From the IMG/VR virus record IMGVR_UViG_3300027819_000006: a stretch of DNA of 64,000 nt; one strand, 5' to 3'. Source of the DNA: a virus. Its lineage: Duplodnaviria; Caudoviricetes. Both the position numbers and the translations under genes were made by a program. The notes under the pieces are model-generated. The model saw nothing but the letters and a program-made list of their open reading frames with translations, did no database searches and was not told the origin of the DNA. Positions 1 to 54,518 of this stretch are shown piece after piece; within the stretch, counting starts at the first letter, position 1, and each line of letters begins with the position of its first letter.

Positions 1-276
1 CCTGTAAGTTACTAACATGTTGAACTTAGCAAGTGCTATGATTGTACTGATTCTTGATCCTCCGAATACAAATTTGCTCATTATATCTTCTATAGCTATA
101 TGGTCTATAGAATGCTGCTGTTTCAAATCATTGAAAACTTTATCTACACTATCAATTTTTTCGTATACATCTTTGCATTTTGAAAGATTGATGAAATCAC
201 ATAGAAGCAAACTTCTGTTTTGATCTAAAATGCTATATCCAATAGTAAGAGTTGAGATGTCAAGACCTAATATCAA
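1..276 (-). CDS. ruvC: RuvC-like Holliday junction resolvase (3' end beyond window edge)
   Basis: Manual minus-strand translation from TTG at 276: MILGLDISTLTIGYSILD...HIAIEDIMSKF; has the RNase H-fold LGLD and IAIE catalytic motifs. Not in the ORF track. Confidence 0.8.
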   Translation of the reverse strand, partial: MILGLDISTLTIGYSILDQNRSLLLCDFINLSKCKDVYEKIDSVDKVFNDLKQQHSIDHIAIEDIMSKFVFGGSRISTIIALAKFNMLVTYR

Positions 277-944
277 ACTATTCTCCACACTAAATCCTCT
301 TCTCCATTCCAAATTCTTACAATTCTATATCCATTTCTTTTTGCTAAATTGTTTTTATATATGTCATTATCAGTTCCGAATGGATAATTATGATAATATT
401 TTCCATCTACTTCCACCAACATGTTAAAATCTGGTAGATAAAAATCAAATGTTCTTGTTTCTATTCTTTTTTGTTTAACATAGTTAATATTGCTCTCTAT
501 CAATATAGATTCTACTTTTAATTCTGGTTTAGTGTCACAAAATTTTGCAGGTATTTTTCTATTACCATTTTCATAACTTTTTTTATTTCCTTCTGATATA
601 TTTTTTTTCCCTTGCTCAGATACTTTTCTACCCTTAGTTTTAATAGACATGTTCTTTTTTTGTTCATCTGTCCATTTATTTCCATAATTAGAATTTTTAT
701 CTCCAGTTCTAAGTTTAGCTGCTTTTGAAAGTTTCTTTATGCTTTCTTCTGAAAAGGTCCTTCCATAAAAAGAATTTTTATCTCCAGTTCTAAGCTTTAG
801 AGCTTTGATCTTACCTTCTCTACCACATTCTTTAGAACAATATTTTTTAAATATATTTTCATAACATTTAGCATATTTGCAATATACTATAAATTCTAAA
901 TTACAATTGGCACATATAAAGCTTTTAGGTATTAATACTCTCAT
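273..944 (-). CDS. Homing-type endonuclease, Zn-ribbon + NUMOD3 repeats + Vsr/DUF559 catalytic domain
   Basis: Repeated KLRTGDKNSxYG motifs; TKPE..V, FDFYLPD, LVEVDGKYYH, YRIVRIW. Confidence 0.85.
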   Translation of the reverse strand: MRVLIPKSFICANCNLEFIVYCKYAKCYENIFKKYCSKECGREGKIKALKLRTGDKNSFYGRTFSEESIKKLSKAAKLRTGDKNSNYGNKWTDEQKKNMSIKTKGRKVSEQGKKNISEGNKKSYENGNRKIPAKFCDTKPELKVESILIESNINYVKQKRIETRTFDFYLPDFNMLVEVDGKYYHNYPFGTDNDIYKNNLAKRNGYRIVRIWNGEEDLVWRIV

Positions 945-3024: not shown

Positions 3025-3455
3025 TTTGCTAAATGTCTCTTTTCTTTGTTGTAGTAGTTTCTATATGATTCAACAGCATTTTCTGTTTTGCAATAATCAG
3101 GCATGCATAGAGGAACAGATGTTAGCTCTTCTGAATCAAATTTCAGCAAACGTTTGTTGCTATCAACCCATTCTAATATTTTAGAACAAGCATGAATCTT
3201 GCCATATCTAAAAGTGTATTCATAACATATGTTCTGTGCTAATTTTAACAATAGATTAAAATTTTTTAAACTGTGTCTACACCATTTAGAGCAAGGATGA
3301 TTTTTATGTACTAATTTGTATGGAGCTTCTAAATTCTGCAACCAGAAAGCTGAGCATAACATCTGACAACTTTCAATCTGCATTTTAAGAATGTGGCGGT
3401 CAACATAGAATCTGACCGCCAATTCAGGATTTTCATCTAGATAGAATACATTCAT
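2985..3455 (-). CDS. Pyrimidine-dimer DNA glycosylase / endonuclease V-like protein
   Basis: MNVFYLD..P, KMQIESCQMLCSA, HKNHPCSKW and YRNYY motifs typical of the phage family. Confidence 0.65.
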   Translation of the reverse strand: MNVFYLDENPELAVRFYVDRHILKMQIESCQMLCSAFWLQNLEAPYKLVHKNHPCSKWCRHSLKNFNLLLKLAQNICYEYTFRYGKIHACSKILEWVDSNKRLLKFDSEELTSVPLCMPDYCKTENAVESYRNYYNKEKRHLAKWTRRTVPHWWID

Positions 3456-3459
3456 CTGT

Positions 3460-4257
3460 TTAGAATCTTACTTTAAATCCATTACCATAGAATTGAATCT
3501 TATCATCATGCTTCTTATGTCCAAAAATCAGAGCATCAACAATATTCATTGCATAGATGCCCGCTGCCACATAAGTAGCTCCTCTGCGATAAGTCTTCCA
3601 ATCCTGTCCCTTGAAATTATTTTTCTCAAGTACATAGCAAGTGCCTGCTGCTAGACCTGCAAGAGTTGCTGTAGTTGCATAGAATACTCCTGGTCCAACT
3701 CTACCCTGTCTGATCTGTCCCCATCCAGGATATACAGCACTATGGACAACTGCATCGAATCGATATGCAATTCCCTTGCCTACACTTGCAATAAGAGAGG
3801 GACTATTCTTCTGCTTCTTAAATAGAATATAGTAATGCTGAGCAGCCTTTCCATTCTGAGCAGAAACTTCTGTATAATCAGCAACAAAAGCCAACCCATT
3901 CAATTTTGCTGCATTAAATACGACTGTAGCTTCTGTGGCAAGACTCTCTGCTTGAGCAGTAACTTTTACATAGTCTACAAGATTATCAGTCGATCCTTGC
4001 TGTGTTGCCATAATATATTTACGTACAGCATCTACACGAGCTTTCAGCTTTGCTTGCTCATAATTGACATCAATTGCATCTCCTTTATAATAGTCAAAAT
4101 AATCACTATTGGGAAGTGCATAAACCCATTTAGGAGCTGTAATTACATTAACTACTGTATTTTGATTTTGCTGAAAATTGTAATATGGTTGAGCATCTGT
4201 CTTTGAAGAAACAAAAACTGTCAGCATAAGTGCTGATGCAACAATAAACTTTTTCAT
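3460..4257 (-). CDS. Secreted/membrane protein
   Basis: Signal peptide MKKFIVASALMLTVFVSS; SAVYPGWGQ followed by hydrophobic helices. Confidence 0.6.
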   Translation of the reverse strand: MKKFIVASALMLTVFVSSKTDAQPYYNFQQNQNTVVNVITAPKWVYALPNSDYFDYYKGDAIDVNYEQAKLKARVDAVRKYIMATQQGSTDNLVDYVKVTAQAESLATEATVVFNAAKLNGLAFVADYTEVSAQNGKAAQHYYILFKKQKNSPSLIASVGKGIAYRFDAVVHSAVYPGWGQIRQGRVGPGVFYATTATLAGLAAGTCYVLEKNNFKGQDWKTYRRGATYVAAGIYAMNIVDALIFGHKKHDDKIQFYGNGFKVRF

Positions 4258-25812: not shown

Positions 25813-26052
25813 TTAATATTTCCCTTTATTGCTAAACCAGTTTCCGACCCAGTTAAACATTACTTTTCCAGTATATAGTCGTGTGCATTCTGTATTTCCG
25901 CAATTATTACAATATGGAATAACTTTAGAAGCATCTTTTATTCCTTTACCTTTATCAGAACTCCACTCATCATATTCTTTGAAAGACATTTCAACTTCCC
26001 ATATTCTTTTGCATTTATTGCACTGAAAATCATAAATTGGCACAAAAATCAA
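25813..26052 (-). CDS. FmdB-like zinc-ribbon protein
   Basis: PIYDFQCNKC ... CNNCG. Confidence 0.7.
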   Translation of the reverse strand: MIFVPIYDFQCNKCKRIWEVEMSFKEYDEWSSDKGKGIKDASKVIPYCNNCGNTECTRLYTGKVMFNWVGNWFSNKGKY

Positions 26053-27452
26053 TCACCTCTATCTGCTTTGAAATCATCATAGAGCTTACCCAATTTTGCT
26101 CTAACAGTTTGTTGGGGATCTAAATATTCTGAACTACTCTGATCTTGTCCTTGTTCATTGATTTCATTAGTTATATCTATAAAGCTTGTAGCTGTATCTA
26201 TAAAAACATTATATATCTGACCATCTTTACCGATTCTATTTTTAGCAATATATAGTTTGCCATGATTTGTCAATTTATCTTTCAGACTTCTTGAAAAACT
26301 CATTACGAAATCTGCAACTTGAGCTTTAGCATAAGATTCACCAATTCTGTCTAAAGTTATTATTTCCTCATTATTTCCCATCCTATTACTCTGAGAAGCA
26401 CTCAAGATTGGGAGTTGCAATTCACCAGACATCCTTCTCAAATCTTCATATATTGCCTCTACTTCAAATCTTTTCTGTTCATATCCCCTTTTTGAAAGCA
26501 TTAAATCTGCATAATCTACAATCACTAATCCTGGTTTAAAACCCGATGAAAGCAATCTTCCTAAGTGAAATCTAAGAGTATTTACAGTAGCAGATTTAGT
26601 AGGATATTCTTTAATAATTAATTTGCCACCTTTAAACTGACTTAATTTTTCTTCCGCTTCTTCAGCTCTTTCTCTGATTTTCTTTATCGGAATTCCTGTA
26701 ATTCTTGCATCATATCTATTTCCAATATTTCTTTCAGATAATTCAAAACTATAATGAACTACATCTATACCAGCTTTCAGAGCACCATATCCAAGATTAA
26801 TTAACCAGAAACTTTTGCCCCCACCAGTTGGAGCTAATATTATAGCAAGTTCTCCTCCAGCAAATCCACCATCTAGACAATCTATATCATCTAGTTGTTT
26901 GAATCCTGTAGGTACTGCTTTTCTAATATTTATTTGAGTTCTAATATTCAACCCTTCAAAATAATCATGCCCTAAATCTATACTTGTTCCAATTTTTAGA
27001 GCATCTTCTACTGTCTTGAATATTTTTTCAAATCTTGAATCATCACCAGTTTTCAATAAATCAACAGATCTTAATATAGCATGTTCCATTGATTTATTTT
27101 TGCAGAATTCAAAAACTTTATCTTTAGTCTGTTCTAATTCTTTTACATTCACTTTATGCTCTATATCAAATAGAGCTTTTAAAATCAATTCTTTTAGATC
27201 ATCATCTGGATAATATGCTATTTCTACTTTTACTGCATCAAATGTTGGTAAACATTGATATTTTTCGTAGTACTTTTTAATCTCATTCCATATTACTTTA
27301 TGAGGTTCAGATCCAAAATATTCAGATTTTAGAACTTCATATACATTATCAAAAAATTTAGCATCTGTTAGTGCACTTTGTAAAGTTTTTGTTTGAAAAT
27401 CAATTCCAAACATTGAAAATGTATCATAGTGGTTAGACATCAAGTTCTCCAA
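26049..27452 (-). CDS. dnaB: Replicative DNA helicase (DnaB/gp41 family)
   Basis: APTGGGKS, FELSE, VIVDYADL, SASQSNR, IAKNR. Confidence 0.92.
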   Translation of the reverse strand: MENLMSNHYDTFSMFGIDFQTKTLQSALTDAKFFDNVYEVLKSEYFGSEPHKVIWNEIKKYYEKYQCLPTFDAVKVEIAYYPDDDLKELILKALFDIEHKVNVKELEQTKDKVFEFCKNKSMEHAILRSVDLLKTGDDSRFEKIFKTVEDALKIGTSIDLGHDYFEGLNIRTQINIRKAVPTGFKQLDDIDCLDGGFAGGELAIILAPTGGGKSFWLINLGYGALKAGIDVVHYSFELSERNIGNRYDARITGIPIKKIRERAEEAEEKLSQFKGGKLIIKEYPTKSATVNTLRFHLGRLLSSGFKPGLVIVDYADLMLSKRGYEQKRFEVEAIYEDLRRMSGELQLPILSASQSNRMGNNEEIITLDRIGESYAKAQVADFVMSFSRSLKDKLTNHGKLYIAKNRIGKDGQIYNVFIDTATSFIDITNEINEQGQDQSSSEYLDPQQTVRAKLGKLYDDFKADRGD

Positions 27453-28550
27453 AATGTGTTATTGTTCTTCGAATATCCATATTGCCAAGATGTATCAAAA
27501 TCATAAAAAGTATCTATCCATTTATCTACTTTCTGTTGAGATAGATCATCTTCTACTGTTAAATATCTTGTTGTAACTGCATTGAATGTTGGTTCTACTG
27601 AAAATGTTTTTTCTATTGAGTCTATTGCTGCGAGGCTTATATTTGGTTCAAGAAGCTGTATAAGTTCTTGATTTTGTTGAAGTGTTGCTATATTTTCTTC
27701 TGTTATGTACTTTTCATATCTCTTATTTATTTTGCTCTCCTGTTTAGCATATTGTACAATATCGTTGATCTCATATTTTCTTTCAGAAGACAGAAATGGA
27801 AAATCTTTCAACACTGTTTTCTCACCTACTCTTGGTATTCCTTTGATATTATCAGCATCTCCAGTAAAGCATTTTATTATGATATAATTCTGAGGATAAC
27901 ATTTAACATAATTAACTAAATAGTTGTATGTGATTATTTCACCATATGTTTTTAAATTATCCCCTTTCTTATTTAAAACTGGAGTTGCTTCTTTTGTTAA
28001 ATCTTTTCCAATTGCTATATTCCCATCTAATATGTCGTTTGCTAATATGTTTCTTTTTACTGGTCTCAACAATTTAGTATGCTTATCTATTAGCTGATAG
28101 TAATCTCTATCAGTAGATAGAATTATTTTTTCATAATTGCTACTTTTAAATACTTTGTTACAGCTATATGCTATGACATCATCTGCTTCTAGATAGTCTA
28201 TACTGAACTGGTAAAATGGAAATGAATTGACATATTTTTTCAATCTTATCAATTCACTTTTTATTGCTGCTCTTTCAACATCTGGATCAGTAAACATTTT
28301 TCTATTAAATCCTGAACTTTTGCGCCCTGCTTTATATTCTGCTAATAGTTTTCTTCTTCTTTCTGCTGAACCCTTGCCTTCCCAATAGAAACATACTATA
28401 TCAGGTTTTAATCTATTCATAACTCCTAATATGCTATCTATAGAAGTTATATATCCTCCTGTATGTTCACCATTATCATTACATAGAGAAGAAGCGCAAA
28501 AATTTCTAAAAAAAAAGGTTCATGCTATCAATTAACAGCACTGTTTTCAA
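27440..28550 (-). CDS. 5'-3' exonuclease / flap endonuclease (Pol I N-terminal type); frameshift in the A9 run at 28508-28516
   Basis: TTG start at 28550 gives MKTVLLIDSMNL; removing one T joins it to FFRNF...EADDVIA...STDRD...GDADNIKGIPRVGEKT. Confidence 0.85.
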
Positions 28551-29404
28551 TTATATTATTCTCCATTCTTTATGAATTTCATTATCCCAAATACGTATCA
28601 ATTTATATCCATACTTTTTTGCTAACTGGTTTTTATATTCATCATTTTTCATTATTTCTTGCCACATCTTAGGTCTACATTCTTCATATCTAGCATGCCA
28701 ACAACAACCATCTAATTCAATCAATGTATTATAATCAATTAAAAATCATAACATTTATTTTCTAATCTATATTGCTGTTTGAAATTTATGTTCATACTTT
28801 TTAATATTTCTTTAACTTCTAGTTCTGGCTTAGATATCGATACATTATGGTGAGTAGATAAATAATTCAATCTAGCATCTGACATTTTAAGCTTAGATGC
28901 TTCAGAATGTGCTCTTCCATAAGCAGCTGATAATTCACCAGTTAGGCCATACTGCGAATGATTTTCTCCTCTCAGATGATCATTACAGTACTGATCCCAT
29001 ACTTTAACTCCTTCAACTTCTCCGAATGTTTTAAATATAAAAGATTTTTGACTGTGATGTTTACTTCCTTTCTTCATATTAGCTTTATGCTCTTCAGTTT
29101 TCTCCTTTCCTTTCATTGAAAGACTGATTTTATTTCTAGAAAAATCAGAAGTTATTTCAGCTAATTCAAATTTTGTTAAATATTCAGCTGTTGTCATATT
29201 ATGTTTATCTAACAAGTGTTGAGCATTTACTCTTCTGAATTTTTCATGACATATTAAGCATTCGACAGTTCTTTCTATATCATTTATTTTATTTTCTGCT
29301 TTTATTTCAGCTTGACAATCTTTACATATTCCACATTTATTTGTTACTCCTAATGGTTTAATTTTACATACAGAGCATCTTTCATTATTCTTAAATCCTC
29401 TCAT
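28551..29404 (-). CDS. NUMOD3 + Vsr/DUF559 endonuclease (frameshift near 28741-28745)
   Basis: SKPELEV...CYDF, continuing in a shifted frame as LIDYNTLIELDGCCWH...LIRIWD...EWRII*. Confidence 0.8.
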
Positions 29405-29420
29405 CTTATTTCTCCAACTA

Positions 29421-29506
29421 ACAAACCAATTAGTGACGTCCTAATAGGTAGACCTACAGGCTAATTGGTTTGTAATATATTTATATTTAAGCCTATTAGA
29501 ACGTCA
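29421..29506 (-). promoter_or_regulatory. Structured two-stem leader, copy 1
   Basis: Inverted repeats 29421-29433/29461-29473 and 29434-29448/29492-29506, interleaved; U.G wobble on the minus strand. Confidence 0.8.
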
Positions 29507-29536
29507 TATATAAATATACTATGAGAAATAAAAGAA

Positions 29537-29590
29537 TTACAAATTATGAGAATCTACTAAAAGTATTGTTCTTTTTGAATTGTTGTCCAT
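29537..29590 (-). pseudogene. Truncated duplicate N-terminus of the 5'-3' exonuclease
   Basis: AAGGAG RBS then MDNNSKRTILLVDSHNL*; compare MKTVLLIDSMNL at 28550. Confidence 0.75.
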
Positions 29591-29649
29591 TAAACTCCTT
29601 GTATTTATAAATATCACTTTCAAAGCTTATAAGACATGAAGAACAAACT

Positions 29650-29689
29650 AAAATGGTAACCATTTTTAATTAAAATAGTTACTATTTTA
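29650..29689. repeat. Two tandem imperfect 17-19 bp palindromes
   Basis: AAAATGGTAACCATTTT and TAAAATAGTTACTATTTTA. Confidence 0.6.
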
Positions 29690-29757
29690 AAACAAATTGT
29701 CTATTCATTTATGACTGAGGATACTCATTTAAAAAATCAACATTATCAGATATTTCA

Positions 29758-30315
29758 TCAACTATAAATTTGATCACATGAATGTCCTCTAAATGTTTGA
29801 GCTTCTTTTTCATACCATTCTTCTGGATGAGTCAAAAAAGAATTTGGTATAGAAAATCTTCTATCTACTCCATATTCTTTATCTTCATACAGATAATCAA
29901 ATGCTTCTTTATAAGACAATCCTTCAGACAGCTTCTGATTAAAATCTTCTCTCAATGGAATACTAGAATTTGATTCACCCTTTACAGGTCTTGAAGCTAA
30001 TTTATCAGAATTTCCATCAATTTTTTCACCACATTCATAGCAATAAATACATTTATCTATTGTATTGATGAAAAAACTGACATTCAATTTGCTATATAGA
30101 TGATTAGCTATATCACTTGTTGCAGTGTACAAATATTTTCTACTTGTCCTTTTTATTGCTAGTGCTTGAAAATAGCATGATTCATAATGCCATTTTCTGT
30201 GAAGATCTCTAAGTTGGTAATCTTGTAGTTTCATAGTTTTAACAATTTCATAAAAATACCCATGCTCATCATAAATGGCATGCCAGAAGTGAATACTGAA
30301 AAGAATGTGATACAA
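29758..30315 (-). CDS. hypothetical protein
   Basis: 185-aa ORF with CxxCxxC. Confidence 0.5.
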   Translation of the reverse strand: MYHILFSIHFWHAIYDEHGYFYEIVKTMKLQDYQLRDLHRKWHYESCYFQALAIKRTSRKYLYTATSDIANHLYSKLNVSFFINTIDKCIYCYECGEKIDGNSDKLASRPVKGESNSSIPLREDFNQKLSEGLSYKEAFDYLYEDKEYGVDRRFSIPNSFLTHPEEWYEKEAQTFRGHSCDQIYS

Positions 30316-34424: not shown

Positions 34425-34862
34425 CTATCTCAAAACAATTTCTCTGATCTTTTGCTTAACTTCTTCTCTATTAAGATTTATATCATGCTCCCAAAATCTT
34501 AGCAATTGAAACCCTCTCTTTCTAGCTAACCAATTTTTGACAACATCATTTCTTTTATTCTTCAATTGCATATAATTCTTATTTTCATTCATCTCATCAG
34601 AACCATGCCAATAATCTCCATCAACTTCTATAAGGATGTTTTTGCTCAGAATTCTAAAGTCATATACTTTCCAGCTATTGATGAAATTTATTGGATACTC
34701 AATTTCAAATTCTATTCCAAGCTCTGTTAAAATGCAAGACATCTCTTCTTCTGGAGCAGTTCTTTTTCTATTCTTTCTTTGTGGTTCTCTAAAAGTAACT
34801 CTGCCTTCTTTTCTCTTGTTTTTCAGAAATTTTACAAATGTCTTCTTAAAGCCTCTCTTCAA
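34425..34862 (-). CDS. Stand-alone Vsr/DUF559 endonuclease-domain protein
   Basis: TAPE, VYDF, IEVDGDYWH, LLRFWE. Confidence 0.8.
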   Translation of the reverse strand: MKRGFKKTFVKFLKNKRKEGRVTFREPQRKNRKRTAPEEEMSCILTELGIEFEIEYPINFINSWKVYDFRILSKNILIEVDGDYWHGSDEMNENKNYMQLKNKRNDVVKNWLARKRGFQLLRFWEHDINLNREEVKQKIREIVLR

Positions 34863-35912: not shown

Positions 35913-36636
35913 TTTCTAGAGTAATAAAAAAATCTTTTTCTAAATTTAAATTAGAAGCATGACAAATTCCAGAGCCATTAACAATAGCTAAACGTCTAGC
36001 CTTTACATCAGAAATCCATTTAGGATTTGCAGTTTCTGCTCTTTTAATAGCTATTATAGTAAGTTTTTGAACTTCATCAGTTATATTCTGTTTTACAAAA
36101 GTTTGCAATATATCTAATTTCATTGTATCAGAAATTCCACCTTGCTGTGTTCTCAAATCGAAGAACATCGCTGCCGCTCTTTGAGACTTAACCTGGTATA
36201 TTGGCATCATAGCCAAAGCTTTATCAAATACATTTTTAGCAACTTTCAACTGAATTTGTTGCATTTCATTAGTCTGACCTAATTTATAGAATCTATCTTT
36301 CCATTCTGGTAATATTTTATTATTTGTTTGTATTGCAGCTGACCAAGCTACTTGTGATTGTATATCTGTTTTATTCAACATCTCTTTAAAAGTAGCCGAA
36401 CCATTGCCAAAAATATTATCTACTATAGCACTATGACTCTGAATCATTTCTTTTAAAAGTGGTTGTAATGATCCTTGTCCTAAACAAAATTGTAAACATC
36501 CAAATGAAAAACCTTGTCCGTCAAAATTTCCACTCATGCCACTATAACTTTCAAGTGGCATTTTACCTGTCTCTATAAAACTTGTAAGAGCTACACACTT
36601 CTCTAATAATGTAGAGTCTTTATTTAATCTATTCAT
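35902..36636 (-). CDS. Lysozyme-like peptidoglycan hydrolase (putative endolysin)
   Basis: FIE...YSGMSGNFDGQGFSFGCLQ pattern; adjacent to SLT; ATG at 36636 follows a GGAG RBS. Confidence 0.55.
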   Translation of the reverse strand: MNRLNKDSTLLEKCVALTSFIETGKMPLESYSGMSGNFDGQGFSFGCLQFCLGQGSLQPLLKEMIQSHSAIVDNIFGNGSATFKEMLNKTDIQSQVAWSAAIQTNNKILPEWKDRFYKLGQTNEMQQIQLKVAKNVFDKALAMMPIYQVKSQRAAAMFFDLRTQQGGISDTMKLDILQTFVKQNITDEVQKLTIIAIKRAETANPKWISDVKARRLAIVNGSGICHASNLNLEKDFFITLENAV

Positions 36637-37477
36637 ATAATTCTCCAAAGTTTATTAACATCACTTTCCCATATTCTAACTAATTTATAACCATATTTTT
36701 TAGCTAATTCATTTTTTAATTGATCTATTTCTATTTTTATTTTCTGAAATTCGTTTACTGGTCCATTTGGATAATATTCAGGATTACAATGATGATAATT
36801 GCCGTCTACTTCTACTAGTATATTAAAATCTTGTAAATAAAAATCATAATATCTGTTTTCGATCTTGAATTGATTTTCATACCTAATATTACTTTCTATA
36901 TTTTTTCTACTGATTCTTCTACTTTTGAAGTTCTTCTATGCCAATCTTTAGCTACTTTTTCTTTCCACATTTTTTCAGCTATTTCTATACCAAAACTTTT
37001 AGCCCAAAAATCTTTGACTGTTTTGCCATACATCACATTCTTTGAACCTTTTTTATCATCTGACATTTTTAGCAATCTATCATCTGTATTCTTATTTAAC
37101 CCGTCATTCCAGTTTTTACCACCATTTTCATAAAATAAAATCATGCCTGCAGAAGTTTTATTTCCATGTATTTTTACTCTCTCATCTGTTTCTTTTGTAA
37201 GACCTTTATTCCAAGCACCCGATTTGACAAAACCAATTTTTAAAATGCTATTACGACATCCATAACATCTATTATTAGGTCCTTTCACTTCTTTATTACA
37301 GTCATTTTCTATACATTTATATTTATCTAATTTCAGAATTTCAAACCAATATTTTTTAGAATTTACCTTATGTTTTGCTCCAACATGACCAAATAAAGCA
37401 TTATAGCTTTTGAAAACTTTCTTGCAAATAAAACATGATGGTAGTGGATTATTACTTTTATATTCACTTATATTCAA
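36633..37477 (-). CDS. Zn-finger/NUMOD3 + Vsr endonuclease (frameshift near 36900)
   Basis: WNKGLTKET and WNDGLNKNT repeats; the shifted frame continues YYDFYLQD..LVEVDGNYHH...LVRIWE...LWRII*. Confidence 0.8.
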
Positions 37478-37497
37478 TCTATTTCTCCTATAATAAA

Positions 37498-37583
37498 AGC
37501 CAAGCAATTGTAATCTACAATAGACTATGAATCTAGTAGTTGCTTGGCTCAAACTATTGGTTAAGTTTATTGTAGATTACAAT
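37498..37583 (-). promoter_or_regulatory. Structured two-stem leader, copy 2
   Basis: Inverted repeats 37498-37507/37540-37549 and 37507-37522/37568-37583. Confidence 0.75.
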
Positions 37584-49860: not shown

Positions 49861-51034
49861 CTAAAATGTTAATTGCTGTGATTTGTTGTTTATAATACAA
49901 TTTAAATCTTCTTTAAATAAAATATGATATATTTTAGATTCTTTTTCATATAAACGCAAAAAATTTGCTATTTTTACTTTGCTGTTTTCATATGTATAAA
50001 TTGATTTAACTTCTTCTATTCTTATCAAATTATCATTTTCGTCATATATGAAAAAATCGGGAGTATATGTAGTTCCATCTAGTTTATAAGTTATTTCTTC
50101 ATATTTTGATATAGAATCTAAAAATTGAGCTCTTTCTAGTTCATAAGATGATTTTAAATATGTTTTGTTATATATTTTGTCCATCTATCAGTATTAGTGT
50201 ATTTATCATGCCACATTAATAAAGCTGTTTTCAAACCATATTTTTCAATCCAAACATCGAAAACAGATTTACCATACATTCCATTATTTTTACCATAAGT
50301 TGGGCAAGTTTCGCCTGTCAGACCTAATCTGTACGGAATAATTTCTCCTGAAGCATATTTTATTTTTAATGCGTCAGAAATATTTTTTTACATTCATCTG
50401 ATAGAGGAATTCCAAAACTGTGTGATAATTCTCCAGTAAGACCTTTATTCCACTGAATTCTGCCATTAGCAAATTGATCTTTTAACGTTATAGATACATT
50501 TTCTGACTGTTTTCTAACTCCGTCGCTAGTTTCTTTAGTGAGACCAGTATTCCACTGAATTCTTTCATTGGCAAACTGATATTTTAAAGTTTCTGAAATC
50601 TGCTGCTTCTCTTCTTCAGTGTGTAATCTTCCAAAATTATGGCATAGTTCTCCAGTCAATCCATAATTCCATGCATTTTCTCCTCTAGTTTTTTCATTTC
50701 TGTCTTCCCATCTCCCACTTCCTTCTTCTTCTCCATATTTTTCTATTATTACATTTTTTATTCCTCTACAAAAGACACTATGTTCTGACATATATTCAGA
50801 TAATTTGTAGTTATTACACTTCCGACATAGTTCTGCACTTCTGTTCTTTTTGTTTCCACATTTGCAAAATTTTAAAGATAGATAATACGATAAATTAGTG
50901 TTATTTTTTATTTCGATACTGAGATCTTCTATTTTATTAATGTTTTTATCTATTTTATAGTCACATTCTTTACAAACATTAGTAATATTGTTGAGCGATA
51001 ATTTGTTTGTGTTGCATATGCTGCATAATTTCAA
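49861..51034 (-). pseudogene. NUMOD3 + PD-(D/E)XK endonuclease with several frameshifts
   Basis: WNxGLT(G/K)E repeats in 50366..51034; LKSSYE...YTPDF...IEEVK in 49861..50184; shifted frames link the two. Confidence 0.75.
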
Positions 51035-52619: not shown

Positions 52620-53411
52620 CTATTTTAGAAATTTATCATGAGTAGTTAAATTAAGTCCTCTTTTTACTAGTGAATCTAAAACTTTATTTGTATTATCCTC
52701 AAATCCAGGAATAATAGAACAACAATCTTTCACTAGATGTATTTTTTGAATATTCTCTTCTCCAAAATTGGCACAAATGTCGATCAAACTATACAATACG
52801 CAATGTGATAAAGCTTCGCCATAGAACCCAATTACATCGGCTCTCTGTAAAGTCTCAATTAATCTAACATTTAATTGAGTTGAGGGATCGTTTGAGTCAG
52901 GGACATCTGCAACCAACACACCAAAATGTTCCGTCGTGTAGTTGCTCCCCTTGGTAACGTAATCTACCATAGCAACTCCTTTTTCCCATTCAAGAAGCTG
53001 TTCTGCTACTGGAGAGATAACTGTAGCTCCGACGGACCCTATGAGGCAATGCGGTGGCCAAATACAAAGTTTATATCTGCCATTCTTTGCCAATGTCTCA
53101 GTATATGTTAGCATCTTTTGTGTTTCAGCAGGATTTGAAGGTTTCCATACTCCATTTTTTACATCTTCATAAGAAATAATAGTAAATGGATTCGGATGAT
53201 TTCCTTTTGAGTCTACCCAGAAAATAGGATGTGCTACGTCGTAGAAATGATGAGTATCTAGCGTTACATGGTAGTCATCTACTCTGTCTCGAATTCTTTC
53301 CATCATTTTAACCATTCTCAAAACATCTTGATCAGCACCAGGAACAAATAGCTCTCCACTTGGTGAACAAAATGATACCTGTGTGTCGATCATTAAACAT
53401 TCTATTTTCAT
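52620..53411 (-). CDS. pncA: Nicotinamidase (isochorismatase family)
   Basis: IDTQVSF, TLDTH, WPPHC, TKG, GEALSHCV. Confidence 0.85.
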   Translation of the reverse strand: MKIECLMIDTQVSFCSPSGELFVPGADQDVLRMVKMMERIRDRVDDYHVTLDTHHFYDVAHPIFWVDSKGNHPNPFTIISYEDVKNGVWKPSNPAETQKMLTYTETLAKNGRYKLCIWPPHCLIGSVGATVISPVAEQLLEWEKGVAMVDYVTKGSNYTTEHFGVLVADVPDSNDPSTQLNVRLIETLQRADVIGFYGEALSHCVLYSLIDICANFGEENIQKIHLVKDCCSIIPGFEDNTNKVLDSLVKRGLNLTTHDKFLK

Positions 53412-54295
53412 ATTAGTCTCCATATTAATTTAACTTCATCTTCCCAGACTCTAACTATTCTATCTATAACCATTGTTTTTAGCAACATTATTTTTATTAT
53501 GATCACTGGCAATTCTCTCTTTCCAGTTAAATGGTTTTTATATCCCTCTCTACAATGCCAATAATTTCCATCTACTTCTATAAGTATATTATAATCAATT
53601 AATAAAAAATCATAAACACTATACCTATTAGTGATTTCATCTAATATAAAGAATTGTTTTTTAAAATTTATGTTACACTCTATAAGCAGCTGCTCCATTT
53701 CTAATTCACATTTAGTAGTTTGATATTTTCGATTGCATAAAGATTTAGCAGCAGATAAAGATCTTTTAGCTTTTTCTTCTTCACCCATTACTCTACCTTT
53801 AGTTGTAATACCTCCATCTTGATAAAATTTTTTCAAACCCTCTGATATTTTATTTTTTGTTTCATCAGAACTAATTCTTTCAAAATTCCAGTGTAATTCA
53901 CCAGTTAACCCTTTATTAAATTGTGTTTCAGATATCTTATTGTTTCTTTCTATCCACATCTGCTCAGCTATTTCTATTCCATGTTTTAGAATCCAAATAT
54001 CTAAAACAGATTTTTCAAAAGTTCCATTTCTAGATCCAGAACTTGCACACTTTCTACATCTTACTCCTGCACTCTTTACTTGATTTTCACAATTTTCTTC
54101 TATACAATAATATATACGATGTTTAGGACATTTAAATTCTCCTTTTAAAATTGATTTTTGATATACTCTAGAAGTGCAGTTTTCTTCTGAACAATACGTG
54201 CTATTTACTGCTGAATGATATCCACAAGTGTTTTGGCCTTTTTCAACAGCACGTACACTAGCTTCATTATTGCATTTATCAACGACACATTTCAC
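53408..54295 (-). CDS. Cys-rich/NUMOD3 + Vsr endonuclease
   Basis: GTG start after GGAG; TKCE, YDFLLID, IEVDGNYWH, RVWE, LIWRLI*; compensating indels near 53460-53520. Confidence 0.8.
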   Translation of the reverse strand: MKCVVDKCNNEASVRAVEKGQNTCGYHSAVNSTYCSEENCTSRVYQKSILKGEFKCPKHRIYYCIEENCENQVKSAGVRCRKCASSGSRNGTFEKSVLDIWILKHGIEIAEQMWIERNNKISETQFNKGLTGELHWNFERISSDETKNKISEGLKKFYQDGGITTKGRVMGEEEKAKRSLSAAKSLCNRKYQTTKCELEMEQLLIECNINFKKQFFILDEITNRYSVYDFLLIDYNILIEVDGNYWHCREGYKNHLTGKRELPVIIIKIMLLKTMVIDRIVRVWEDEVKLIWRLI

Positions 54296-54398: not shown

Positions 54399-54518
54399 AT
54401 ATAAATATATTTGACAGAGAAGAAAAGACACTACATTGTAAAACTCCTTTTATTTGGTTGGTTGTTTTGATCTGTCTATTCTATATAATATTTGAGTATA
54501 GTTTTATAAACTCTATTT

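Follow-up and report, generated by a model that had tools for sequence, protein, structure and literature searches.

The gene for the flap endonuclease (FEN, a 5'-3' exonuclease) of a giant groundwater phage (Caudoviricetes, Duplodnaviria; IMG/VR record IMGVR_UViG_3300027819_000006) is preceded by a second, stranded FEN start, and a homing endonuclease gene (HEG) lies between the two. We studied this locus in a 64-kb stretch of the record ("the window" below means the whole of this stretch), in which all genes of the locus are on the minus strand. We consider it probable, and hold this with some confidence, that the locus is the footprint of a free-standing HEG that displaced the FEN start by one-sided illegitimate entry and has since decayed. 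What is inferred in this account is where the cut fell, that repair was one-sided, that the left join used microhomology, and any rescue of a frameshift in the replacement start.

The stranded start is an open reading frame (ORF) of 17 codons, MDNNSKRTILLVDSHNL followed by TAA (29537-29590), which includes the Asp and Asn of FEN motif I. Its ATG (29588-29590) and its stop (29537-29539) were read from the sequence, as were an AAGGAG ribosome-binding site 4 nucleotides (nt) ahead of the ATG (29595-29600) and, upstream, a predicted promoter-like box of the original FEN gene (GATATTTATAAATA, 29602-29614, containing TATAAATA). The segment GATATTTATA of this box (29605-29614), which also contains TATAAATA, agrees in nine of its ten bases with the TATATTTATA box that recurs in this phage, with eight copies on the minus strand of the window. 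The FEN N-terminus in relatives follows the pattern M-K-K-x-V-L-L-I-D-x-x-N-[LM]-F-I-R-N-F, and we scored all stop-free 11-mers of the six frames (n = 63,392) with a position-specific score (PSSM) derived from 58 distinct FEN N-termini. The replacement start in front of the FEN body ranked first (25.1 bits) and the short ORF second (17.1 bits), with the third score at 11.2; none of 5,000,000 random peptides of window composition reached the score of the short ORF. A strong ribosome site precedes it, and it lies on the strand of the FEN body, 1 kb upstream of that body. The short ORF is a true FEN start left behind as a relic. A preliminary description of this DNA had proposed an exonuclease relic driven by an AAGGAG and a promoter-like box and followed by a cassette, after which the gene restarts. 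We located the relic ORF, its ribosome site and its box where that description had placed them, the relatives' FEN starts are not unrelated to the short ORF but match it, and the DNA between relic and restart is indeed a cassette, that of a homing endonuclease.

Two diverged copies of the FEN start thus flank the nuclease gene, the replacement start continuous with FEN and the relic stranded, with the caveat that the continuous copy is frameshifted by an extra T. The two copies are identical at 13 of 27 nt (48%), and their differences include Ser (TCT/AGC) and Leu (TTG/CTT) codon swaps. The third PSSM score belongs to a mini-ORF, MINTLILIDGQNI followed by a stop (50162-50203, minus strand), which looks like a FEN/PIN-type start; we rejected it as a FEN start, as it sits inside another decayed nuclease gene and about 0.2 such matches per window are expected by chance.

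The gene between the two starts is predicted to encode a free-standing homing endonuclease of the EDxHD/Vsr-like (I-Bth0305I) family. Its N-terminal part (221 codons and TAA, 28739-29404, ending ...CYDF) carries a Cys-rich ribbon, a ROS/MucR-type finger and NUMOD3, with Pfam matches to PF05443 (26.8 bits, cut-off 25.4) and PF07460 (NUMOD3; 22.3 bits, cut-off 20.4). The C-terminal part (64 codons and TAA, 28551-28745) is in another frame, reads ...LIELDGCCWH...IRIWDNEIHKEWRII and holds the Vsr-like/EDxHD core; the GGAG at 28561-28564, inside this part, serves the FEN start. A profile of 16 C-domain sequences, the C-terminal part from the window included, matched the catalytic domain of I-Bth0305I (3R3P) at E = 2.7e-14, 3HRL (DUF559) at 4e-7 and Vsr (1CW0) at 3e-6. 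The intact orthologue of relative L008, to which the N-terminal part from the window is 42-47% identical, matched 3R3P on its own at E = 1.3e-4, and the NUMOD3 region gave a weak match to the DNA-binding domain of I-TevI (1I3J, E = 5e-3). Four paralogs with the C-domain are present in the window (276-944, 34428-34862, about 36636-37552 and 53411-54283), the whole ones of which reach the DUF559 cut-off.

DNA alignment and three-frame reading show that 4 nt present in all four paralogs are missing from the nuclease gene at 28737-28745. The gap falls between the DF and E-x-D-G motifs and shifts the frame, so that the gene is split in two. The catalytic residues of the EDxHD family are the equivalents of Vsr Asp51, a family Glu, His69 and Asp97 (PMC2677866); here residues matched to them by motif alignment only are present in the DNA (...YDF, IELDG, CCWH and RIWDNE), the first Asp being in a different frame from the others. 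The uninterrupted frame of an active free-standing homing endonuclease is absent, and we predict that this nuclease is dead and that the copy can no longer home. Its long branch in the family tree (1.14 versus 0.39 for L008) fits decay. The preliminary description mentioned neither this split nor the frameshift of the replacement start. The paralog at 36636-37552 is also in two frames and 4 nt short of its paralogs, about 20 codons upstream of the position of the gap described here, and two independent 4-nt losses in sister nuclease genes are curious. Elsewhere in the window, a NUMOD3 nuclease gene at 49861-51034 with a YTPDF...EEVK (PD-(D/E)xK-like) C-domain lies in three frames, with one of the changes at an A7 run, and appears to be another decayed or recoded homing nuclease.

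To place the locus among its relatives we compared FEN starts and their surroundings in phages whose FENs are at most 47% identical to that of the window (41% for L008). The order FEN, DnaB, small genes, RNR is kept in all of them, unlike the upstream flank, and the conserved replication module has FEN at its edge. In the window the right-hand neighbour is a gene for a DnaB-like helicase (26049-27452, identified by Pfam), while the genes just upstream of the relic (29709-30315; one of 185 amino acids (aa) and smaller ORFs) gave no Pfam match and had no counterpart upstream of FEN in any relative examined.

A nuclease gene or its remnant adjoins the FEN start in five lineages, the window included, and seven are empty (L005, L006, L007, L024, L025, L026 and the P0011 contig), with a plain FEN start after an unrelated gene. 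L008 has the same layout as the window: an AGGAG, a relic (MMQKKKIVIVDVMNMFCKQ and a stop), a TATATTTATA box and an intact orthologous nuclease of 237 aa (3291-4001) whose stop overlaps the FEN start (ATGA). Its relic, however, ends 4 codons further on. In L022 an intact nuclease of 207 aa (210-833) occupies the spacer between an unrelated gene and FEN, and there is no relic. The lineage L009-L015 is sister to L022 and shares its upstream gene and the leader remnant; of its nuclease gene no more than the terminal ~50 codons survive, and these remain fused to the FEN start. L024 has both flanks as in L022 and L009 and represents the matching empty site. In the P0009 contig a NUMOD3+DUF559 gene of 222 aa ends 4 nt inside FEN. 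Set against its sister L022 (148-833), L009 (2461-2650) shows loss of the nuclease by one internal deletion, extending from the promoter box as far as the codons that precede I-L-I-E-V-D-G and leaving the ~50 terminal codons as the FEN leader. L008 and L009 share 97-100% identity over the final ~60 nt of the nuclease gene, at only about 50% identity of their FEN DNA.

The three full FEN-linked nucleases are reciprocal best matches and form one clade among 49 family members (support 98/90 for the window with L008 and 84/83 with L022 added; the clade is found in 88% of bootstrap trees). In the FEN tree, one well-supported clade unites the relic-free carriers with empty members, and the two relic-bearing phages lie elsewhere. 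No intron or intein surrounds the nuclease gene and its presence at this one site is patchy, as is characteristic of free-standing homing. A related enzyme, P0094 (39% identical to that of L008), lies downstream of DnaG primase genes in L023 (3001-3783); because this is a different replication-gene neighbourhood, the nuclease family changes targets.

The preliminary description had called for empty alleles, and these exist at the family level, in the seven lineages named above, but a strain-level empty allele of this phage was not found. The sequencing runs that carry the locus yielded no contig bridging an empty site and no joint, and a 2.4x contig that ends exactly at the relic/cassette boundary (29540) was rejected as an empty allele on account of its low depth. 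The sequencing-run search found no RNA run carrying the stretch. We obtained no blastn match for 27400-29700 among 50,697 phage records; a 19-mer from the conserved 3' end of the nuclease gene recovered only the L009 lineage and two chance matches in IMG/VR, and a metagenome scan with the L008 nuclease recovered the L009 lineage only.

The nuclease gene is preceded by a cassette leader of ~130 nt (29405-29542), which comprises, from its left end, a TGTA element (TTGTAA, 29537-29542), a T-rich stretch, a TATATTTATA box (29509-29518), two interleaved inverted repeats (B 29492-29505, A 29461-29473, B' 29435-29448 and A' 29421-29433) and a GGAG (29412-29415). The plan from the T-rich stretch to the GGAG recurs before five nuclease genes of the window, this one included, and the leader folds with z = -3.3. 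The preliminary description had the junction itself supply TTGTAA as a -35-like hexamer. The hexamer is present, and forms a sigma-70-like match with TATATT across an 18-nt spacer, but such a match is insignificant alone (17 in this AT-rich stretch versus 10.2 +/- 2.9 in shuffles), and the hexamer is probably an element of the cassette promoter rather than a product of the junction. This assignment is suggested by the position of TGTA elements, which lie 19-30 nt upstream of six of nine TATATTTATA boxes, one relic-free resident locus among them, where the chance of a TGTA in a given nine-position window (-28 to -20) is ~5.5% per box.

Both relic/cassette joins, in the window and in L008, are at a TGTA element, and in the relic-free L022 TGTA is the leftmost part of the cassette. 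The FEN codons TTC-TGT-AAA of L008 themselves contain TGTAA, and in the window AAT-TTG-T... could have supplied a TTGT microhomology; the TTGTAA is more likely a cassette element that served as the microhomology than a product of the join. Because TTGTAA is probably part of the cassette promoter, the junction would lie inside AATTTGTAA, and the final Leu codon of the relic may come from the cassette rather than from the relic. A comparable arrangement is present before the nuclease cassette at 53 kb (~54420-54450, minus strand), where the cassette promoter comes immediately after the series AAGGAG, 8 nt, ATG and TAG. It resembles a host-gene start reduced to its start codon, a one-codon 'relic', and its ATGTAG overlaps the TGTA element.

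The replacement start (28506-28550) opens with a TTG (28548-28550) directly behind the nuclease stop, the first codon of MKTVLLIDSMNL, and continues as MKTVLLIDSMNLFF; in frame 0 it reads ...NLFF and then TAG (28506-28508). The TTG restart behind the nuclease agrees with the preliminary description, but the FFR continuation given there is out of frame, since a T9 run (28508-28516), one T too long, precedes the TAG. A T8 run would restore the family-typical NLFFRNF, that is MKTVLLIDSMNLFFRNF.... The FEN body, 358 codons beginning RNFCASS..., follows in the +1 frame (27440-28516; PF02739, E = 1.5e-21). Of the 36 columns conserved to at least 90% in 38 relatives, it keeps 33, all acidic residues included; read with T8, D8, E121, D123, D124, D147, D149 and D233 are all kept, D8 being joined to the others only after the frame change. 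The T9 run is the sole homopolymer of nine or more in the 64 kb, against 17 A or T runs of exactly eight, and the sharp cap at eight suggests that this phage is under selection against runs prone to slippage. In many bacteria, A/T runs turn slippage-prone and are selected against once they reach nine (PMC1088944). Both lesions, the 4-nt gap and the extra T, recur base for base in an independent Logan assembly of two runs (~18x) and in an ENA assembly, which excludes an assembler artefact but not a read-level error, because those runs are probably the underlying data; two further groundwater runs contain identical fragments at 2-4x. Full-length FEN can arise only by slippage on U9 or by a +1 shift at UUU_UAG; otherwise the gene died recently.

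The following sequence of events would account for these observations. A nuclease lineage would have been resident directly before the FEN start codon, its last codons carrying the FEN ribosome site and its stop abutting or overlapping the FEN start. In a mixed infection, the nuclease would make a cut in the first 10-20 codons of a FEN gene lacking the HEG, at motif I (L-L-[IV]-D-x-x-N-[LM]-F), and the break would be repaired from the HEG-bearing genome. On the right, repair could use homology in FEN and in the conserved FEN-DnaB-RNR module. On the left, because the upstream genes are not shared, the join would be illegitimate, probably at 4-5 nt of microhomology with the TGTA at the left end of the cassette, and for that reason the promoter, the ribosome site and the first 16-17 codons of the recipient would be left behind as a dead stub. 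FEN would from then on start from the donor's recoded start behind the nuclease gene. Experiments on T4 introns that home with homology on one side only have shown joins at microhomologies (Parker, Belisle & Belfort 1999, as summarised in PMC2988022). Decay would have come later, when the nuclease lost 4 nt and was split between two catalytic motifs and the imported T8 run gained one T. The relic loci of the window and of L008 would represent invasions of lineages that share the right flank (FEN, DnaB) with the donor but not the left.

The preliminary description had named the codons of FEN motif I as the target, and this is plausible from the sequences compared here. The two independent relics end 4 codons apart (N-L in the window, N-M-F-C-K-Q in L008), and in L008, where relic and restart share 79% DNA identity, seven of the eight differences lie within V-D-V-M-N, a stretch of five codons. 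The low identity of the two copies in the window (13 of 27 nt, with the Ser and Leu codon swaps) also favours this target. All three starts beside a full-length nuclease have AAC as their Asn codon and all nine relic, empty or remnant alleles have AAT, and the wobble position of this codon is the only separating one among the 27 aligned nucleotide columns. I-Bth0305I cuts directly beside its own insertion site and tolerates most single substitutions (PMC3239194), so that a single base is unlikely to be the whole basis of immunity. A pseudopalindromic target of the I-Bth0305I kind (TTxG-N6-CxAA) was sought by eye in the relic region, and none was convincing. A more far-reaching version, which we regard as rather unlikely, would make the cassette a natural 'start-replacement gene drive' directed at essential replication genes: the nuclease would recognise the motif I codons, the recoded start marked by the AAC Asn codon would be immune, the unit of relic, cassette and restart would home precisely into naive alleles with the relic as left homology, and slippage at T9/UAG would keep an invaded FEN working.

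Several points weigh against entry of the HEG by displacement of the FEN start. The distance from TGTA to the box is variable (19 to 30 nt), and the AAC/AAT contrast is one of 3 versus 9 alleles, with a probability of 1 in 220 for a single column and about 0.1 for 27 columns; this association could be hitch-hiking. Without a strain-level empty allele, and with the closest FEN relatives 47% identical, neither donor nor recipient can be named. A sliding comparison of the FEN protein, its identity to the HEG-bearing clade being set against that to the empty clade in steps of 20 residues, revealed no mosaic boundary. The near-identical DNA of L008 and L009 (97-100%) stops at the FEN start codon, and hence no long co-transferred FEN tract is visible in this pair. 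Finally, which copy is called native and which imported rests on context and not on a phylogeny of 12-17 codons, the context being that HEG and FEN start are conserved as a unit and that a ribosome site and a box of its own accompany the relic.

This last point bears on the opposite polarity, in which the restart and the FEN body are native and the relic is a scrap of donor FEN imported on the left of the cassette. Seventeen codons are too few to place either copy in a lineage, the restart (V-L-L-I-D-x-M-N-L-F) conforms to the consensus of the family at large, and L008 and L009 cease to share DNA at the FEN start codon, as would suit a cassette ending there. Nevertheless, we find this polarity improbable. 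The relic-free cassettes of L022 and L009 begin at the TGTA/promoter element after an unrelated gene and carry no FEN scrap; the ribosome site and box of the relic are continuous with the upstream DNA, and a scrap would need both; and relic and restart of L008 share a lineage-specific MFCKQ, which points to two alleles of one lineage. Far less probable still is a group I intron that carries the nuclease gene and splices the relic to the FEN body. Joined to the T-run, the relic would in principle read ...VDSHNL-FFRNF, but it ends in a stop codon at the cassette promoter, and the insert finishes with a second complete FEN start and ribosome site that an intron would not need. A cmscan of 28300-29800 against Rfam 15 (E <= 1) returned only a chance snoRNA match, and the same nuclease occupies a plain intergenic slot in L022 and L009. 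We give practically no credence to a layout without biological meaning, whether from an assembly chimera, an ORF arisen by chance or a tandem duplication on the spot. AT-rich DNA is indeed rich in short ORFs and promoter-like matches, but against such readings stand the rank of the relic among the scored 11-mers, its score beyond all random peptides, the same layout in L008 and the identical contig from a second assembler, and the 48% identity of the two copies argues against a recent tandem duplication.

A separate question is whether the T9 run is a recoding site in use, at which slippage from U9 to U8 or a +1 shift at UUU_UAG_A yields FEN at a low and possibly regulated level. T4-type phages can do without FEN, as T4 can without its own (RNase H). 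No kind of spontaneous mutation is commoner than the gain of one base in a run such as T8. Among the FEN starts compared, no relative has a T-run or a frameshift at this place, and there is no Shine-Dalgarno-like stimulator upstream of T9/UAG; of the features of programmed +1 frameshifting of the RF2 (prfB) type, UUU_UAG is present and stimulator and conservation are absent, though unprogrammed, compensatory slippage may occur. On the other side, UUU_U followed by a stop is a classical 'shifty stop', and UUU_U is found at the RF2 site in a minority of species (PMC5009743); the run has the slippage-prone length of nine (PMC1088944), and either route gives exactly NLFFRNF. The remaining 358 codons are undamaged, with the conserved columns kept as described above, and the carrier population was assembled at ~18x, with low depth in further runs. 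We regard recoding as a genuine possibility, while leaning against it.

The enzyme family with its leaders is already known, and so are free-standing homing, illegitimate repair on one side and the cycle of gain, decay and loss. To these the locus adds a lineage of the EDxHD type that stays with the FEN start codon in deeply diverged phages, two independent relics that bracket the probable cut site and every stage of the cycle at a single site; it also adds a replacement start with a frameshift of its own, at the window's only 9-run. Homing endonucleases normally need an intron or an intein to enter essential genes without killing them, and this locus and its relatives would illustrate a third route in phages, in which the element brings a spare gene start. 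The stranded old start would mark roughly where the cut was made and may permit the targets of uncharacterised nucleases to be predicted from sequence alone; such targets are of interest for rare-cutting enzymes and may help to explain the exchange of replication modules between phages. The series of empty, intact, frameshifted and truncated sites forms a compact natural record of gain, decay and loss among FENs that are only about 40% identical. The T9 start offers a small testable case of an apparently conserved enzyme dependent on slippage, unless the gene has just died.

Mobile endonuclease ORFs of fungal mitochondria that give rise to gene hybrids, of the type described at atp6 of Allomyces macrogynus, travel with a replacement end for the host gene, and the displaced original is left nearby as a nonfunctional duplicate. 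Those cases concern the 3' ends of mitochondrial genes and GIY-YIG or LAGLIDADG enzymes, whereas here it is the 5' end of a phage gene and an EDxHD enzyme. The locus resembles the 'intronless homing' of the T4 seg and mob genes (PMC2988022) in its intergenic nuclease gene, its patchy presence among related phages and the inferred co-transfer of flanking DNA. It differs from them in the enzyme family, in a site fixed to one start codon across FENs that are ~40% identical, and in an entry that left a stranded start. As in the homing cycle, intact, frameshifted, truncated and absent states are found among relatives. The proposed entry is also like one-sided intron homing in T4, where homology is present on one side and the other join forms at a microhomology after resection, a route that its authors proposed for mobile elements reaching new sites, as summarised in PMC2988022. 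The T4 events in that summary were obtained in the laboratory with engineered exon deletions, while the present ones would be natural and have occurred twice, in the window and in L008, with joins 4 codons apart.

The closest likeness in enzyme and setting is to the I-Bth0305I/EDxHD family (Dassa et al. 2009, PMC2677866; Taylor et al. 2011, PMC3239194), which shares the Vsr-like C-domain, an N-terminal NUMOD3 and phage replication and repair genes as hosts. Dassa et al. (2009, PMC2677866) also described hairpin-rich EDxHD leaders with a T4-late-like promoter, and nuclease genes whose 3' end overlaps the start of the downstream gene. In comparison with the described members, the window copy is frameshifted and cleavage by its clade is a prediction. 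Those members reside in group I introns (recA) or between the halves of split inteins ('fractured genes'), and neither is present here; instead, the host gene would have been kept whole by a duplicated, recoded start, with the old start left behind as a stub.

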